50,924 nucleotides of DNA, from positions 1 to 50,924 of the forward strand of contig JBGVPJ010000047.1 in assembly GCA_045126955.1 (NCBI GenBank), read 5' to 3'. Shown here in pieces: positions 34,014-40,728 of the stretch; positions within the stretch are counted from its first letter, which is position 1; every line of letters starts with the position of its first letter. The stretch comes from Faecousia sp. Its GTDB lineage: Bacteria > Bacillota > Clostridia > Oscillospirales > Oscillospiraceae. The notes under the pieces are model-generated. The model ran no database searches. It was not told where the DNA came from and saw only the letters and a program-made list of their open reading frames with translations. Position numbers and translations under genes: made by a program.

Positions 34014-34098
34014 CAATCAAATAAAGAAAGTGCAATTGTTCTTTATTTTACGTTGGAAGCGTGTTCTGTCCGTTATATAGTAAAATTTTAAAATTTCC

Positions 34099-34140
34099 AA
34101 AAGCAAGGCACTCCTTTCTGTAAAGGAGTGCCTTGCTTTT
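34099..34140. terminator. Bidirectional terminator
   Basis: aaaagcaaggcactccttt / aaaggagtgccttgctttt perfect inverted repeat. Confidence 0.8.
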
Positions 34141-34153
34141 GGTACAACCAATA

Positions 34154-34240
34154 CGGATTGCCACGGCTTGCAAACAAGCTTCGCAATGACGGTGGTTTTT
34201 GATGGTTACTGCCACTGCCGAAAACCACGTCATTCCGAGA
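34154..34240. repeat. REP-like palindrome (GGATTGCCAC..CGCAATGAC / GTCATTCCGAG type)
   Basis: cggattgccacggcttgcaaacaagcttcgcaatgacggtggtttt..aaaaccacgtcattccgag forms an imperfect hairpin. Confidence 0.55.
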
Positions 34241-34254
34241 ATAGGACAACATTT

Positions 34255-35016
34255 CTAGAAAGATTCCGGGTCGGAAGGGAGGTAACCGTATCTGTTTTTG
34301 AATACCTTGCTGAAATATAAGGGGTCTTCAAAGCCTACCGCCGCCGCTACCGCATACACATAAGAATAATCGCCGCAGTCCAGGATGTTTTTGGCTTGGG
34401 CAAGGCGCTTTTCTAATACATACTTTTTCGGGGGGATGCCGTATACCGCAATAAAGATCTTCCGGAAATAGGTATCGGATATGTTGCACAAGGTGTGCAG
34501 CTGTCCAATCTTCAAGCTGCAATCGAAAATGTTATTCTCTAAATAGTCGATAGCCGGCTTTATCAAATTCCTTTTGTCTGAGCTGCAATAACTTTTTCTT
34601 TCGTGTTGATATATAATGGTTGCGATTTTATAAAACAGGGACATGCTCTCCATCGTACCGGAAGGACTACCGAAAATTAAGACCCGGATTAGCCGGTCAA
34701 TTATGTGCCTGAACATGTGAAAGTCGCTGCAAGGGAAGAGCCTTGGCTGGCAGTCCGGTAATGAGGCCGTGAAGTTGATCACAGCATAGTGGCTTTCCTC
34801 CGGAGAAACCCTGCCGACAGTGTAGGTGGCTCCCATTGGGATAAAAAGTACCTGCCCCTTAGACAGCGAGATCTTTTTGTCGTGAAAAGTATACACACTT
34901 TCTCCGTCGATCTTAAAGATTAGTGCATGATATGGCCTGTCTGTAAACTGTTGCTTGATGGCTGATTTGCCATACAACGCGCTGACAATTTTTAATTTTT
35001 CCATACTCTCAAACAT
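34255..35016 (-). CDS. AraC-family transcriptional regulator
   Basis: C-terminal ISDTYFRKIF..YGIPP..VGFEDPLYFSKVFK; N-terminal cupin-like domain. The start is chosen after ggtga, and the upstream part of the ORF contains the -10 box. Confidence 0.88.
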   Translation of the reverse strand: MFESMEKLKIVSALYGKSAIKQQFTDRPYHALIFKIDGESVYTFHDKKISLSKGQVLFIPMGATYTVGRVSPEESHYAVINFTASLPDCQPRLFPCSDFHMFRHIIDRLIRVLIFGSPSGTMESMSLFYKIATIIYQHERKSYCSSDKRNLIKPAIDYLENNIFDCSLKIGQLHTLCNISDTYFRKIFIAVYGIPPKKYVLEKRLAQAKNILDCGDYSYVYAVAAAVGFEDPLYFSKVFKNRYGYLPSDPESF

Positions 35017-35144
35017 AAAATCACCGGATTTATTATAACATTCCATTGCCTTGTGTCAATAAGTGTTTTAAAAATTCTATATTGTAATTTTATTTCCCTT
35101 TACATGGCAGCCATAGACGGTATAATTGCACTGGGTGATGTGAT

Positions 35145-36053
35145 ATGTTTGTTATCTTCAGTCAGGTTCTAATTCTTCTTATCTTTGTGTTCATAGGTTT
35201 TGTATTAGGCAAGGGGAATGTTGTGAAAACGGAACACACGAAAATACTATCGAGTTTGTTGGTGTATGTTTTCCTGTCTTGCAATATTTATAAGACCTTC
35301 TCAGCCAGATTCTCTCCGGCATACATAGCAACCAATTACAGACTGCTTCTCATATCCGCGGCTGTGTTGTGTGTTTTGTTGGTGGCGGCGCATTTCGCGG
35401 CAAAGGTATTTTCAAAAAATAAATACGAACGGTGTATTTACGAATACTCTCTGGTGATCCCTAACTACGGGTATATCGGATATGCTTTGGCTGAGGCGCT
35501 GTTTGGGCAAGCGGGTCTCATTAACTTCATGACTTTTGCAGTACCTGTTTCGCTCTATACCTATACCTTTGGTTTTGCTAAGCTGACCAAACAGGGTGCC
35601 AGTCTGAAAAAACTGTGCAACCCGGTAATTATTTCTATGGTCCTGGGTATCATAGCCGGATTGTCCGGCTTTACAGTTCCGGATGTGCTGACCGATGTGA
35701 TAAATAAGGCAAGCGGCTGTATGGCTCCGGTGAGCATGCTGCTTGCGGGTATCGTCATATCGGGTTTTTCCCTTAAAAGCATGCTCAGCAATATCAAAAG
35801 CTATGGTTTCGTCATGCTCCGGCTTGTGGTGATACCGCTGCTGTTGGGTACCGTGTTGTGCCTGTTTTGTGAACAACGTGTGGTGCAGACGGCCATTTTG
35901 TTCTATGCGCTCCCCTGCGGTCTCAATACGGTGGTTTTCCCAAGGCTGGTGGACGAGAATTGTCAGATCGGTGCCGGTCTGGCGCTGATTTCCACGGTGC
36001 TTTCCTGTGTCACACTTCCTGTTATTTTAACAATATTTCATATAGGAGGATGA
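35145..36053 (+). CDS. AEC (auxin efflux carrier / malate permease) family transporter
   Basis: Highly hydrophobic; PNYGYIGY, NPVII, RLVVIP, ISTVLS..TLP. Confidence 0.88.
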   Translation: MFVIFSQVLILLIFVFIGFVLGKGNVVKTEHTKILSSLLVYVFLSCNIYKTFSARFSPAYIATNYRLLLISAAVLCVLLVAAHFAAKVFSKNKYERCIYEYSLVIPNYGYIGYALAEALFGQAGLINFMTFAVPVSLYTYTFGFAKLTKQGASLKKLCNPVIISMVLGIIAGLSGFTVPDVLTDVINKASGCMAPVSMLLAGIVISGFSLKSMLSNIKSYGFVMLRLVVIPLLLGTVLCLFCEQRVVQTAILFYALPCGLNTVVFPRLVDENCQIGAGLALISTVLSCVTLPVILTIFHIGG

Positions 36054-36056
36054 TTT

Positions 36057-37625
36057 ATGTATCCAATTGTTACTGAAAATGAAACCGTAAGTGTTACTGA
36101 ACAGTATTTTACAATGCCCGATGGAGTAAAGCTCTATACACGAATTGTGGTACCGAAAGGCAAGGATAAATATCCCATTATATTTAAGAGGTCACCGTAT
36201 GAACCGGCGCATAACGGTGTTGCACACGACATTTCTCAATACGACAATGACAGATTCATAAAAAATGGGTATGCCTTTATTTTGCAGCATTGCAGAGGCA
36301 GAGGTGATAGCGAGGGATTTTGCGTTCCCTATGAGGAAAGAAACGATGGGTTAAGCAGTCTTGAAATTATTAGAAAGCTTGATATTTATAACGGTGAGAT
36401 ATACCTTTTCGGTGGAAGCTACCTTTCTACTGCACATTTGAGCTATCTGGACACAAACCCTGAAGATGTTAAGGGTGCTGTGCTTTTTGTACAAACAGAC
36501 AGGATGTATTTCAGAAATTACAGAAACGGTTGTTGTTATGATTTTTGTAATCTAAATTGGTGGCTTGGAATGATAAAACGGCAATTCCCAAATCCCAATT
36601 TAGATGGTGCAGTGAAAAGACCTTATAAAAACATTATGAAACGCGCTATTGGCACGGAATACTCCCCTTATACAGATTTACTGCTAAATGATAAATACAA
36701 TGATTTCTGGAAAAATGATCCGAGAACCTATGTAATAGATAATCTTAAAATCCCTGTCCTTTTTGTTGAGGGGTGGTATGATTTTTATATTGAAGGTATG
36801 TTTTCAATGTGGGAACGACTACCCAAAACCACTAAAAACAAATCGGCATTTATTGTAGGACCTTGGGGGCACGGTACCTCTGTTCCCTCCGATACAGAAT
36901 ATTCTTTGGAAAACGGCAATATACCCGATGACTTTGATGTGGAATGGTTTAACAGTGTCCGAAGCGACACGGCGTATAAATATGCTAAGAAGGGTCAGGT
37001 CAACTATTACTCCATAGGAAAAGACACTTGGCAAGTTTCTGCATATCCTGCTCCGCTTGCTAACAAGAAACGTCTGTATTTCGGCGAAAGTAATACTTTA
37101 AATGATTCACCTTGCGAAACAGATAAAAACATTTCTTATATTTACGATCCCGAAAAGCGATTAAATTGCTATAAATACCATAATATTTATAAGGCAGCTG
37201 AAGTTGGAAGTGTTGACGGAGTAGTATCTTTTCAGTCGAAAGAATTTAGTGAGGACACATCCTTTTATGGTAAAGTGAGATGGCATATGAATGTCAGCTC
37301 TGATTGTAATGACACAGCTTTTTTCATAAGAGTATATTTCGTTGAAAACAATGTGGCCTATAATCTAACAGAAACGATAACTTCACTCTCACATATAAAG
37401 GAAAACTATAAATCGGGAGAAAAAATTACAATCGACCTCTTCACTCCACCTATTGCTTTTACGATAAAAAGCGGAGCCAAAATCAGAGTAGATATTTCTT
37501 CTGATGGTGGAATTTATGTGCCCCACGCAAATGTTAAGGGACATTGGGCAAAAGTCACCAAAACAAAAATTGCCACGAATACGATCTACTTGAACGATTC
37601 CTTCATTGAGCTTGATATAGAATAG
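36057..37625 (+). CDS. CocE/NonD-family hydrolase (S15)
   Basis: MPDGVKL, RSPY, RGRGDSEG, GGSYL nucleophile, GWYD, GPWGH; visibly AT-rich. Confidence 0.9.
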   Translation: MYPIVTENETVSVTEQYFTMPDGVKLYTRIVVPKGKDKYPIIFKRSPYEPAHNGVAHDISQYDNDRFIKNGYAFILQHCRGRGDSEGFCVPYEERNDGLSSLEIIRKLDIYNGEIYLFGGSYLSTAHLSYLDTNPEDVKGAVLFVQTDRMYFRNYRNGCCYDFCNLNWWLGMIKRQFPNPNLDGAVKRPYKNIMKRAIGTEYSPYTDLLLNDKYNDFWKNDPRTYVIDNLKIPVLFVEGWYDFYIEGMFSMWERLPKTTKNKSAFIVGPWGHGTSVPSDTEYSLENGNIPDDFDVEWFNSVRSDTAYKYAKKGQVNYYSIGKDTWQVSAYPAPLANKKRLYFGESNTLNDSPCETDKNISYIYDPEKRLNCYKYHNIYKAAEVGSVDGVVSFQSKEFSEDTSFYGKVRWHMNVSSDCNDTAFFIRVYFVENNVAYNLTETITSLSHIKENYKSGEKITIDLFTPPIAFTIKSGAKIRVDISSDGGIYVPHANVKGHWAKVTKTKIATNTIYLNDSFIELDIE

Positions 37626-37630
37626 TTCAC

Positions 37631-37656
37631 ATGCCTCCCTACATTTAGGGAGGCAT
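37631..37656. terminator. Hairpin terminator
   Basis: atgcctcccta-catt-tagggaggcat. Confidence 0.7.
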
Positions 37657-37720
37657 TCGTTTATAATGCATCTTTCACAGATGGAATTTAATCTGGAATT
37701 TATTGGCAATCCCTTCTCTT

Positions 37721-37843
37721 TTATGCCGCGGCATTCAGCATATTTTCAATAAAAATGCCATAGCCGGTGGTTGGGTCGTTTACAAGGACATGGGTAACCG
37801 CGCCGACCAGCTTGCCGTCTTGGATAATGGGACTGCCGGACAC
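37721..37843 (-). pseudogene. Displaced spoIVB 3' end, copy 3
   Basis: Translates (V)[39 protein letters not shown], matching the SpoIVB C-terminus at 39760-39882. Confidence 0.95.
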
Positions 37844-38015
37844 GCTGATGTCAAGTAAGGGACAAAAGAATTTTGTGCTTCTCTGCGGTTTTTATGCGTT
37901 TTTTGCAGGTAAACGGCAGGTTTTTACACACCTCAATCAGAATCCCTAAGTTGACATGGATGAATTGTCGAAAATACCGTATTTTAAGACTTCTCGCATT
38001 TCCGACAAATTCTGA
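37843..38015. repeat. Conserved non-coding cassette arm, copy A
   Basis: cgctgatgtcaagtaagggacaaaagaattttgtg..taagttgacat..cgacaaattctga aligns with 38972-39143. Confidence 0.9.
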
Positions 38016-38086
38016 GATATGCCGGACCATCGGTTTTATCTTCTAATAAACCAAAACGCAAGCTGAAAAACAGCTTGCGTTGCATG

Positions 38087-38416
38087 TTATAAGATAGAAA
38101 TTGTTCCGATAATATGATGATTAAAGTTTTCCAGTTCTTCTGCGGGAATCCACAGTTCTTGGTGATAGCTTGCTCCAACGGTCTGTACCGGGAACTGAGC
38201 GATATAGGTATCATCAACTTCAAAAGTGGTAACATACCCAGTGTACTGTGAGTCAGCATATCTTTTGTTCCATTTTTCTGCAATTTCCCGGGCATAGCGT
38301 TCGTTCAGCACGGGATAGAAGATGGGTTGTTCTGGCAAACGGGGAGGGTATGCAGTAAAGCCGGATTGTACAATCAAATCATATTCTGCTTGCCCCACAG
38401 GACGATAAAGTCTCAT
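38087..38416 (-). CDS. Conserved small protein, family often labelled ADP-ribosylation/crystallin J1; possible ART-like fold
   Basis: LYRPVG..PPRLPEQPIFYPVLN..WN..GYVT.F.V..ELWIPAEEL..FN; ATGA overlap with the upstream ORF; aggag RBS. Confidence 0.8.
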   Translation of the reverse strand: MRLYRPVGQAEYDLIVQSGFTAYPPRLPEQPIFYPVLNERYAREIAEKWNKRYADSQYTGYVTTFEVDDTYIAQFPVQTVGASYHQELWIPAEELENFNHHIIGTISIL

Positions 38417-38703
38417 TCTGTATCTCCTCTTTTCAATGTCCAACCAAACATTTCTTTAAAGTCTTCGTAGCATTCCGGGCAAATCCAGTCAGCATCACGA
38501 CAATTCTGCGGTCTGGTACAGTAGCCTTCTTGTAGACATTCCTCGTGCAAATAAAACTTGGCCCAACAGAAAGTGCAATGCTCATGATCCCAGTTTTCAG
38601 AAAGCGGTTGGAAAGGTATGTAATACAAGGGGATGTTCTTTAGCTTTTCTTCGTTACCCAGAACAGGTCCGGCAGTTAACCGCCAATCGTCCTTTTCAAT
38701 CAT
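38413..38703 (-). CDS. Hypothetical Cys/His-rich protein (possible Zn binding)
   Basis: 96 aa; WDHEHCTFCW and WICPECYEDF motifs; directly after a promoter and RBS. Confidence 0.75.
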   Translation of the reverse strand: MIEKDDWRLTAGPVLGNEEKLKNIPLYYIPFQPLSENWDHEHCTFCWAKFYLHEECLQEGYCTRPQNCRDADWICPECYEDFKEMFGWTLKRGDTE

Positions 38704-38714
38704 ATTGTTCACCG

Positions 38715-38765
38715 CCTTTTCTTTTATCATATCACAAGGCGGCAGAATTGGCAACAAAAAGCGGG
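38715..38765 (-). promoter_or_regulatory. Cassette sigma-A-type promoter/RBS module, copy 2
   Basis: TTGCCA-N17-TATGAT with extended TG, followed by aaaagaaaagg; homologous to 39574-39624. Confidence 0.75.
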
Positions 38766-38781
38766 GGCTAATAGCCGCCCG

Positions 38782-38848
38782 CGGGCGAACACAGTTCGCC
38801 CCTACGGTGTGTATCGTTTCTATTCGTAGGGGCGATCTGCGATCGCCT
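38782..38848. repeat. Inverted pair of GTAG-type REP sequences (REPIN-like)
   Basis: cgggcgaacacagttcgcccctacg and cgtaggggcgatctgcgatcgcc: each has GTAG followed by a short palindrome, in opposite orientations. Confidence 0.75.
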
Positions 38849-38849
38849 G

Positions 38850-38972
38850 TTATGCCGCAGCATCTAACATATTTTCGATGAAGATGCCATATCCCGTTGT
38901 GGGATCGTTGACCAGCACATGAGTAACGGCGCCTACCAGTTTTCCGTCCTGTATAATCGGTGAGCCGGACAC
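38850..38972 (-). pseudogene. Displaced spoIVB 3' end, copy 2
   Basis: Translates (V)[39 protein letters not shown]. Confidence 0.95.
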
Positions 38973-39143
38973 GCTGATGTCAAGTATGGGACAAAAGAAT
39001 TTTGTGTTTTTCTGCGGTTTTTATGCGTTTTTGCGGGTAAAAGGCAGGTTTTGACACACTCCAACCGCAATCCTTAAGTTGACATAGATGAAATGTCGAA
39101 ACTGGTCGCTTTTAAGTTTTCTTTCACTTTCGACAAATTCTGA
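38972..39143. repeat. Conserved non-coding cassette arm, copy B
   Basis: cgctgatgtcaagtatgggacaaaagaattttgtg..taagttgacat..cgacaaattctga. Confidence 0.9.
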
Positions 39144-39224
39144 TTTCGGGGGGTGCGCAAGTATCTATCCTTAGAATGACCAGTAAAAAGCGCAAGCCGT
39201 AGGAGATACAGCTTGCGCTTAGTA

Positions 39225-39563
39225 TTAAGATATGAATTGACAAATAACCATCATGATACCTAATATACCAAATATTATGGGTATGCCGTACGCATCTGAT
39301 TTTTTGACTTTTCCCCATATGATATGATCCGGCGTCATCTTCTGATGGTAGGCATTTTGATAAGAGCAGTAAATATGCTTCCACCGGAATATGTAACCAA
39401 TTAGACTATATAAAGCATACACGAAAAAGCCTATACCCATTCGGAGCATAAAAAATTCTTTACCAAAACAGAACACAAAAGCAAACACACAAGCAATCCA
39501 AAGATAGCGATGAAAATAGGCGAGCATTTTTACTGTTGCATGTCTGCGCTTTGTTGCGTTCAT
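39225..39563 (-). CDS. Hypothetical membrane protein (112 aa, about 3 TM segments)
   Basis: ATG 39563 follows aaggag; hydrophobic segments; AT-rich. The longer ORF-track start runs through a repeat and the spoIVB tail. Confidence 0.75.
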   Translation of the reverse strand: MNATKRRHATVKMLAYFHRYLWIACVFAFVFCFGKEFFMLRMGIGFFVYALYSLIGYIFRWKHIYCSYQNAYHQKMTPDHIIWGKVKKSDAYGIPIIFGILGIMMVICQFIS

Positions 39564-39573
39564 CTTTAGCACT

Positions 39574-39624
39574 CCTTTTCTTTTATCATAGCACAGGGCA
39601 ATGATAATTGCAACAAAAAGCGGG
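39574..39624 (-). promoter_or_regulatory. Cassette sigma-A-type promoter/RBS module, copy 1
   Basis: TTGCAA-N17-TATGAT with extended TG, followed by aaaagaaaaggag. Confidence 0.75.
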
Positions 39625-39631
39625 CGGTAAA

Positions 39632-39759
39632 AGGCCCCCTTGTGTAAAGGGGGCTGGCAAAAATCTCTGATTTTTGACTGGGGGATTGTCACGCACCGAT
39701 CCATTACAATCCCTCCGTCTGCCCTTCGGGCAGCCACCTCCCTTTGCACAAGGGAGGCT
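39632..39759. repeat. REP-like palindromic repeat pair
   Basis: gcccccttgtgtaaagggggc..gggattgt and acaatccctc..cctccctttgcacaagggagg in inverted arrangement; related to 1-176. Confidence 0.7.
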
Positions 39760-40728
39760 TTAGGCAGCGGCATCCAGCATGTTTTCAATAAAGATGCCAT
39801 ACCCGGTTGTTGGGTCGTTCACAAGGACATGGGTAACAGCGCCGATGAGCTTGCCGTTTTGGATGATGGGGCTGCCGGACATACCCTGCACAATGCCGCC
39901 GGTGGTTTCTAAAAGGGCGGGGTCTGTGATGTGGAGTAGGATGTTGCGGCCCGTTGCGCCTGCGTTGGGATAAACCTTCAAAATCTCCACAGAATATTCC
40001 TGTACCTTGTCACCCTGCACTGTGGAGCGAATGGTAGCAGGTCCTGCCTGCACATCCTTTGCTGTTCCTACAGGCAGCGGCTCGCCTGTCCAGCCGGACG
40101 AGGTGGTACCAAAAACGCCCCGGTTGGTATTTTTATAAAGGGTGCCCACCGGCTCGGCATTCTTTAGCGCTCCCATGAGCTGTCCCGGGTCACCGCACGC
40201 GCCTTTACGCACCGATACAACGGTTGCATTATATGCAGTGCCGGACACCATGCTCAGTAGCTCCCCACGGGCGTTGTTCACCCCGTGACCCAGTGTGCCG
40301 AATTTCTTGCTGTCCGGGTCGTACCAGGTGACCGTCCCCACACCGGTAACACCCTGCTTTAAATAGATGCCCAGCTTGGGACCCTCCCGGGTGATGGACG
40401 GCGTCAGGCGGACGGTGGCGGATTTTTTGTTTCGCACAACAGTCATCTCCACCGTTCCGTCCGACCTGTCCAAGGCATAACGCACGTCCGCCGCGGTATG
40501 GACGGACTGCCCGTTTACCGACAAAATCCGGTCGCCTACCCGCAAGCCCGCCTGCTGGGCCGCCGGTCCCAAATTCTCGTCAAAGGCCGCCACCGTAACG
40601 GTATTGTCCCCCAATTCCAGCCCCACAACCTGTCCGCCCGGTACCAGCATCTGGGCCGCGCTGACACTCACCGTCAACAGCCACGCACAGATGACCAATA
40701 TACCTGTGCGGTTTAAAAATTTTTTCAT
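39760..40728 (-). CDS. spoIVB: SpoIVB serine peptidase (S55, PDZ domain)
   Basis: Signal sequence, PDZ (AGLRVGDRILSVNG), [47 protein letters not shown]. Confidence 0.95.
   Translation of the reverse strand: MKKFLNRTGILVICAWLLTVSVSAAQMLVPGGQVVGLELGDNTVTVAAFDENLGPAAQQAGLRVGDRILSVNGQSVHTAADVRYALDRSDGTVEMTVVRNKKSATVRLTPSITREGPKLGIYLKQGVTGVGTVTWYDPDSKKFGTLGHGVNNARGELLSMVSGTAYNATVVSVRKGACGDPGQLMGALKNAEPVGTLYKNTNRGVFGTTSSGWTGEPLPVGTAKDVQAGPATIRSTVQGDKVQEYSVEILKVYPNAGATGRNILLHITDPALLETTGGIVQGMSGSPIIQNGKLIGAVTHVLVNDPTTGYGIFIENMLDAAA

Follow-up and report, generated by a model that had tools for sequence, protein, structure and literature searches.

The DNA analysed here, called the window, is a stretch of 50,924 nucleotides from the draft genome of Faecousia sp. 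(GCA_045126955.1, contig JBGVPJ010000047.1), in which the sporulation gene spoIVB is followed by an array of two small gene units. The intact gene on the minus strand (40728 to 39760, i.e. 39760..40728) codes for 322 amino acids with a PDZ and a peptidase S55 domain (Pfam PF05580, E 6.5e-73). The product reached 295 bits against TIGR02860, slightly below the cut-off of 305, and matched PDB 9lnf with an E value of 4e-60. At the position of the GMSGSP motif, whose first serine we take to be the catalytic serine of SpoIVB, 9lnf has GMAGAP, which would fit a catalytic-serine mutant. Alignment placed the last 40 codons with the stop codon three times on the minus strand: as the current tail of the gene and left end of unit 1 (39760..39882), as a displaced copy at the left end of unit 2 (38850..38972), and as a second displaced copy at the outermost junction (37721..37843). 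The pairwise identities were 75 %, 88 % and 79 %, with differences mainly in third codon positions (25 of 31, 11 of 15 and 22 of 26 across the three pairs). The homology begins at a TG, preceded by A in the gene and by G in the copies. An earlier note on this DNA had described the three tails with their shared break as well as two units of 910 bp and 1129 bp, and both descriptions were confirmed. Both units carry a shared promoter block and a shared arm; further copies of tail or arm were not found elsewhere in this genome. No recombinase family was recognised on the contig, in line with the note, which had seen no recombinase gene: PF07508, PF00239 and PF00589 were without match there, PF00589 having 17 matches elsewhere in the genome.

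Junction alignment delineated an attB-like target site in the gene with putative limits at 39860..39905 (minus strand); the crossover dinucleotide TG lies at 39881-39880, inside the methionine codon of GMSGSP. In front of the displaced tails stands an attachment half-site. At loci chosen without the motif, 18 of 30 extra tail matches were preceded by such a half-site, TTG-N8-TTGACA-N5, then GTG, and a variant shifted by one base was seen by eye at four more. A pattern scan yielded at least 130 stretches across records of Oscillospiraceae, Acutalibacteraceae and Lachnospiraceae and four IMG/VR contigs, counts that are biased by the pattern used. At 12 of 159 copy junctions, including all four IMG/VR contigs, the half-site lay directly 3' of a large serine recombinase module. 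Where the locus was long enough, this module was a triplet, with Resolvase+Recombinase+Zn-ribbon genes standing three in a row, all in the same orientation, at the end of an element (the Pfam domain scan covered the third gene of L061 only), situated behind a DUF6870 open reading frame (ORF) in both cases scanned. In nine of nine scorable genomes with a module adjoining the tail, spoIVB was broken after GGIVQG-ATG, followed by a near-perfect inverted half-site; in G164, G020 and the viral record no head of spoIVB could be scored, and they stand outside this count. Two control genomes without recombinase had an intact spoIVB. Since the left element end mirrors the half-site around TG, the crossover is fixed one codon before the first serine of GMSGSP, and the element's own site is, as read from its two ends, symmetric about TG. 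The attL pattern was detected in 12 of 400 genus genomes, two of which had been used to build the pattern; the reversed control gave none. Element ends and junction sequence together thus give each arm+TG+tail junction of the window the attR-type form, and each of them is, judged by its sequence, an attR-type site of the triplet element family. The site-specific attachment at the GMSGSP codons suggested in the earlier note was therefore borne out, by the junction alignment and by triplet insertions at the same base.

The triplet elements do not restore spoIVB, because their insertion splits the gene in all nine scorable genomes, with TG as the shared core (range considered, 2-8 bp). The note had assumed that integrating elements bring a replacement tail; the main recombinase-bearing elements interrupt the gene instead, and the repeated tails are better read as displaced tails of earlier hosts. 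In a quick tree the first and the third recombinases each formed one starred clade, while the middle genes split into two groups. Proteins named in a family scan of the helper elements were RecD2, YqaJ, DUF3854, an actin-like protein, ParB, DUF6017, sigma-70 r4 and HTH_16. The element of G325 measures about 19 kb and contains, by eye, cargo-like ORFs; most large elements were broken across contigs. A prophage nature of the helper was rejected, the four IMG/VR contigs being short fragments in which no phage structural gene was recognised. As a blind check on clade specificity, a search by protein alone for third recombinases with at least 50 % identity returned three: one with a tail (G189), an already-seen locus (G164) and one without a tail (G020). 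None of 11 more distant loci had a spoIVB tail, and at E 1e-130 a third recombinase was found in none of 401 genomes of the order, in a search that had no positive control. Triplets with other targets retain the geometry TTRACA + 6 nt + core, and identity to the native gene begins at the core. Such clades with the same half-site geometry occur in the same genus (L209, L216; L210-L212; L214, L215, L219), their targets being presumably a SpoVT/AbrB-like gene, a SpoVAC/E-like gene and an NPPF-motif methyltransferase; the first two were matched to genes of the window's genome. In a further clade on human-gut contigs (L306-L409), a near-constant half-site and TG were followed by different sequence at nearly every locus; this is a low-specificity, transposon-like triplet. 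A second, unrelated single serine recombinase family was also observed at spoIVB (L069:5620-5715, L066, L067, L264). It is about 20-26 % identical to the triplet. Its target lies near T-H-V, about 16 codons deeper in the tail, where the gene of L067 seems to be cut.

The two arms of the window (arm 1, 38973..39143; arm 2, 37844..38015; both minus strand) are 83.7 % identical. The earlier note had recognised the homology of 172 bp and overlooked its internal parts, namely the terminal half-site (at about 38973-38996 in arm 1), a second copy in inverted orientation some 100 bp further upstream (39071-39084 and 37943-37956), and heptamers that resemble the Spo0A box (39129-39135 and 39094-39100 in arm 1, one at 37966-37972 in arm 2). 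Among 60 arms, the inverted half-site was present in 53, at least one Spo0A-box-like heptamer in 59 and two in 46; 12 % of background 200-nt windows contain such a heptamer. Half-site and inverted copy rank among the best-conserved parts of the 60 arms. The window's arm was matched in 70 of 300 genus genomes, and many of the named arm-carrying records among the matches listed were labelled Faecousia. Several readings of the arm were considered and rejected: the end of a decayed recombinase gene or a triplet spacer (the 60-arm profile had no match on recombinase-att spacers), the spacer of the L205 triplet (alignment score below shuffles), a plasmid or phage origin, a role as oriT aside (no plasmid match, and phage matches covered the tail only), and an arm travelling with its right-hand tail as a single connector (no correlation). 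Unit ends of L034, L062, L088, L111, L117, L137 and L147 showed a second arm family, in which a degenerate half-site in direct orientation precedes the att site by about 125 nt. Units at L075, L083, L110, L143 and L146 showed, by eye, a bare 24-bp half-site within about 20 nt of the apparent stop codon of the cargo.

Arrays of this type are common among relatives. The tail was matched in 33 of 36 genus relatives, 15 of them with two to four tails; in other families of the order, one of 24 genomes had several tails. Between the junctions of the fetched loci, 92 units were delimited, 48 with the window-type arm and 44 without, and one of the 92 holds a recombinase; some long units hide an undetected inner junction, and related genomes are not independent. 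The 48 arm units range from 910 to 9872 bp (median 1.5 kb) and fall into 36 cargo groups. Unit 2 of the window stands first, fused to the gene head, in L088, and four more cargos were seen both at first and at inner array positions. A contig of run X8, identical to the flank at 37400-37710, continues into a different unit end. As the earlier note had expected, number, order and cargo of the units vary across relatives, including the same cassette at first or inner position; since a fixed arrangement was not encountered, the array is real and variable. The recombinase encoded outside the units, likewise expected, was recovered as serine-recombinase modules at the same half-site in relatives. 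Arm-unit cargo includes genes that probably serve defence or conflict (Fic, HNH, T5orf172, ribonuclease+barstar, DMP19-like, PARG) and sugar-use operons; 21 of 54 proteins scanned were without Pfam match.

Two relatives combine the helper site with an array. G827 has the order attL, triplet, attR, tail and an arm-type cassette with its own junction; its triplet is 58 % identical to the third gene of L061 and its arm 91 % to the window's arm. In L102 the intact gene is fused to this same cassette, which in L250 stands mid-array. In G222, with a spoIVB head 76 % identical to that of the window, attL and the same element end (99 of 103 nt) precede an array with two arms; the triplet itself was not found in the G222 assembly. 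These are the states expected if an element lands before an array and leaves together with cassettes. We consider it fairly probable that the units are recombinase-less cassettes whose ends are att sites of the spoIVB-targeting triplet element, that they are carried out with this element, and that their cargo is exchanged by homologous recombination. In such a course a triplet element would integrate at spoIVB ahead of the array and would excise either via its own attR or via a more distant one, in the latter case taking cassettes along. The composite would then integrate in a new host. A later precise excision of the element alone would fuse the carried tail to the new gene head, restoring spoIVB, and would shift the host's own tail and the older cassettes downstream. 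Every step would be an ordinary attL x attR or attP x attB reaction, and between moves cargo would be replaced by double crossovers in the connectors of arm and tail (about 290 bp). Mobilisation in cis, by whatever vehicle, would fit the arrangements seen among the relatives, which correspond to its predicted intermediate and product.

The exchange by homologous recombination rests on the linkage of tail, cargo and arm. The left tail failed as a marker of its own cassette in arm-type units. Nine pairs with the same cargo had cargo third positions 58-88 % identical, arms at background, and left tails with a same-codon fraction of 0.41-0.51 by segment, the background being 0.40-0.49. With tail and arm not linked to cargo, a recombination layer had to be added to the recombinase model. 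Between G827 and L250 the cargo tract is 99.6 % identical. It starts at about nt 94 of the tail, in its last third, and takes in about 70 nt of the arm; 23 differences precede it and about 16 follow. Adjoining tails often share blocks of 10 of 10 codons. Tract ends inside tail and arm together with shared tail blocks argue that homologous exchange between connectors also moves cargo. Over all pairs of 60 junctions, arm similarity showed no relation to the following tail (Spearman 0.002), 98 %-alike arms being followed by background tails, and in one gene pair with heads 96 % identical the shared codons fell from 112 of 140 to 12 of 34 at the junction. Since arm identity does not predict the next tail, the break at TG must have been renewed.

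The missing linkage in the nine same-cargo pairs is one of several results that weigh against the proposed mechanism. The window's genome, 83 % complete, yielded neither a triplet of the spoIVB clade nor the mirrored half-site; its four serine-recombinase loci were considered as helper and rejected, none belonging to this clade. Eight of the 30 extra tail matches were without the half-site, and one triplet of the spoIVB clade (G020, L206) is not followed by a spoIVB tail. The window's arm is unlike the triplet spacers tested, so that a descent from such an element would be conjectural. The few helper proteins scanned included none named as a relaxase, conjugation or capsid protein, and in the contigs at hand neither excision nor a circle nor a transfer was observed. 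Finally, units that restore the gene and carry one recombinase immediately after the tail (L062, L305, L139, L204) offer a route that needs no triplet.

These last units speak for the first alternative, that every unit is excised as a small circle of its own, made of half-site, TG, tail and cargo, and inserts into an intact gene with a recombinase supplied in trans, most plausibly the tail-linked single one. In the quick tree the recombinases of L062, L305 and L149_4 branch as sisters of the middle genes in the spoIVB triplets (SH-aLRT, the Shimodaira-Hasegawa-like approximate likelihood ratio test, 100). Two tail+recombinase units each occur in two settings, joined to the gene in one and following a half-site in the other, with identity from TG onwards (25 and 43 identical nt), and many units have only the bare, highly conserved 24-bp half-site just after the cargo stop codon. 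Ccr recombinases are reported to accept non-canonical att pairs (PMC5595907). Against this stand the need for a non-canonical attR x attB-type reaction, the rarity of the single recombinase (one of 401 order genomes and one of 80 metagenome loci, and not found in the window's genome), the absence of a circle joint in the contigs of six runs, and the missing tail-cargo linkage in arm-type cassettes, which pure integration of circles predicts; positional swaps fit mobilisation in cis as well. Such independent circles are therefore considered unlikely, and the free non-autonomous circles of the earlier note received no support from these contigs or from the inheritance of tail and arm, which mostly do not follow the cargo. 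A broader idea makes spoIVB the hub of a two-tier, sporulation-linked gene shuffler: triplets that split the protease at its catalytic motif would excise during sporulation, and the Spo0A-box arms with their extra half-site would turn the gene-restoring cassettes into preferred substrates at that time, to be cut out, put in new order and spread as mini-circles tied to spore formation. We regard this as speculative and rather doubtful.

It is quite improbable that the units are dead remnants of old insertions with disused att sites, varying only by homologous recombination of the host among the repeats. Breakpoints within tail and arm, the patchy tail identity, palindromic repeats inserted in tails just past TG in several arrays, and the helper not found in this genome would agree with decay. 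However, the conservation of half-site and inverted copy among the 60 arms speaks for sites in use, the TG break has been renewed, as arm similarity fails to predict the next tail, and helper elements occupy the spoIVB site in 12 of 400 genus genomes, some of them ahead of arm arrays. An assembly chimera of strain variants is hardly credible: the draft genome is fragmented, no single record spans the array and 39402-39657 is without a long piece in the best run, yet overlapping zero-mismatch contigs of run X1 (probably from the source sample, and so not independent) tile 36500-39401, tails 75-88 % alike are too divergent for allelic collapse, and the same architecture recurs in dozens of other genomes. 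Missing cargo cover in runs X2, X6, X7 and X8 was not counted as evidence, and two X8 joints that skip both units were set aside, their sides being 20-25 nt.

Among known systems, the cassettes come close to the cis-mobilisable elements (CIMEs) of streptococci. CIMEs are described (PMC7563491) as cargo-bearing units of about 1-10 kb that retain att sites but no genes for recombination or transfer and stand in tandem with an autonomous element; composites lie at the 3' ends of rpmG, rpsI, fda, rplL and a tRNA gene. The window units share the flanking att sites of an integrative element, the absence of a recombinase, the cargo and the stacking at one target gene. They hold three short cargo ORFs without family match, on a contig without recombinase family, and thus no recognisable recombination, relaxase or conjugation gene. 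A tandem with the autonomous element at the same site was present in the relatives G827 and G222, not in the window's genome. A CIME is also a deletion derivative of an integrative and conjugative element (ICE) or an integrative and mobilisable element (IME): two of the 92 unit ends, both of recombinase-less units, resembled the spacer of one triplet, as would be expected of deletion derivatives, and the window's arm resembled none tested. Unlike in CIMEs, a triplet of serine recombinases serves as the helper here and splits a sporulation gene, arrays occur also without a helper in front, each unit starts with a coding tail of 40 codons, and many cargos share a conserved promoter and arm.

The helper resembles the serine-integrase triplets of streptococcal ICEs, for which the available text of Ambroset et al. 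2016 (PMC4701971) names mutT, traG and hsdM as targets: three tandem recombinases at the element end cluster by position, disrupt the target gene and use a very short core. That text names neither spoIVB as a target nor arrays of recombinase-less cassettes at the target site, and in contrast to those ICEs no conjugation gene was named among the few spoIVB-helper proteins scanned. The staphylococcal cassette chromosome (SCC, SCCmec) at rlmH, according to the sections available of PMC13739063, likewise involves large serine recombinases, a 2-bp crossover in the 3' part of a gene, tandem composites, older units pushed downstream and att-flanked units without recombinase genes. It uses rlmH with a GA core, whereas spoIVB with a TG core is used here, in a different host and by different recombinases (the triplet behind DUF6870); an assignment of the array to SCC was rejected on these grounds. 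In addition, the duplicated coding segment here comprises 40 codons with the catalytic motif, and spoIVB is inactive for as long as the main helper resides in it.

Like the helper, gin in gerE, skin and SPbeta split sporulation genes, and gin also has three recombinase genes, an operon of two and a distant third, of which only GirC, with GirX, is needed (PMC5595907). The gene in the window is not interrupted; it is the helper that splits spoIVB, in relatives. With these insertions spoIVB joins the sporulation genes that are split by mobile elements. In Bacillus subtilis spoIVB is a forespore gene, whereas the targets of gin, skin and SPbeta are mother-cell genes. If spoIVB is forespore-expressed here too, the element would have to leave the chromosome of the spore itself, in contrast to the mother-cell cases. 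Integrons also stack small cargo units at one site, the newest next to the site. The array was rejected as an integron, the contig having no PF00589 match and hence no adjacent IntI gene, the junctions being serine-recombinase half-sites and each unit having its own promoter block, in place of promoterless cassettes under a single Pc; "integron-like", the term of the earlier note, holds as an analogy only. Full-text searches, with most subscription papers outside their coverage, gave no description of elements or arrays at spoIVB, and Durrant et al. 2022 (PMC10083194) had no spoIVB in the main text and no match in eight supplementary files. The array is a variant of tandem accretion and not a new class; it is real, widespread and mechanistically anchored. 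It provides a defined site and an enzyme family for a common gene-acquisition hotspot in uncultured gut Oscillospiraceae-type bacteria and explains the orphan 40-aa "SpoIVB" fragments in these genomes. With a constant half-site and different targets, the question why three serine recombinases travel together becomes directly testable.

The remaining features of the two units lie on the minus strand. The promoter/RBS (ribosome-binding site) blocks (39574..39639 in unit 1, 38715..38780 in unit 2; 67 bp, 80.6 % identical) match the consensus, with -35/extended -10 matches at 39613-39585 and 38754-38726; the scan total of five sites was not above shuffles. The block was found in 18 of 48 arm units and in none of the 44 others. 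Cargo 1 (39225..39563) codes for a hydrophobic protein of 112 aa (GC 0.36) with weak matches to unnamed Atlas clusters only (0.90-0.91). Cargo 2a (38413..38700), a Cys/His protein of 95 aa, matched unnamed Atlas clusters at 0.96 and has homologues of 87-94 % in L088, L135 and L276. Coupled to it is cargo 2b (38087..38416, 109 aa), with homologues of 90-91 % in L088, L135 and L114. None of the three belongs to a known family in Pfam or NCBIfam. Terminator-like hairpins follow cargo 1 (39188..39220, from inverted-repeat listing and folding) and cargo 2 (38055..38081) and resemble each other (inverted repeats I3/I7/I17). Of the common unit order given in the earlier note, promoter, hairpin and arm stood; the palindromic repeat is not a shared backbone, since two unrelated dispersed families are involved. 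Family 1 (39630..39761) has matches on 18 other contigs of this genome and folds at -67.6 kcal/mol; family 2 (38784..38847, inverted repeat I2) has matches on three. Palindromic repeats of about 120-140 bp also lie inside displaced tails, a few codons past TG, in the arrays of L043, L053, L108, L114, L282 and L435. Just beyond the last tail, at 34050-37720, a low-GC block (0.35-0.50, against 0.53-0.59 on the flanks) carries an AraC regulator, a membrane transporter and an S15 peptidase; no half-site remnant was found there, and it is probably another acquired block. The gene spo0A (G000:C14:13861-14172) does not adjoin spoIVB in the window's genome; in L119, spo0A follows a displaced tail.

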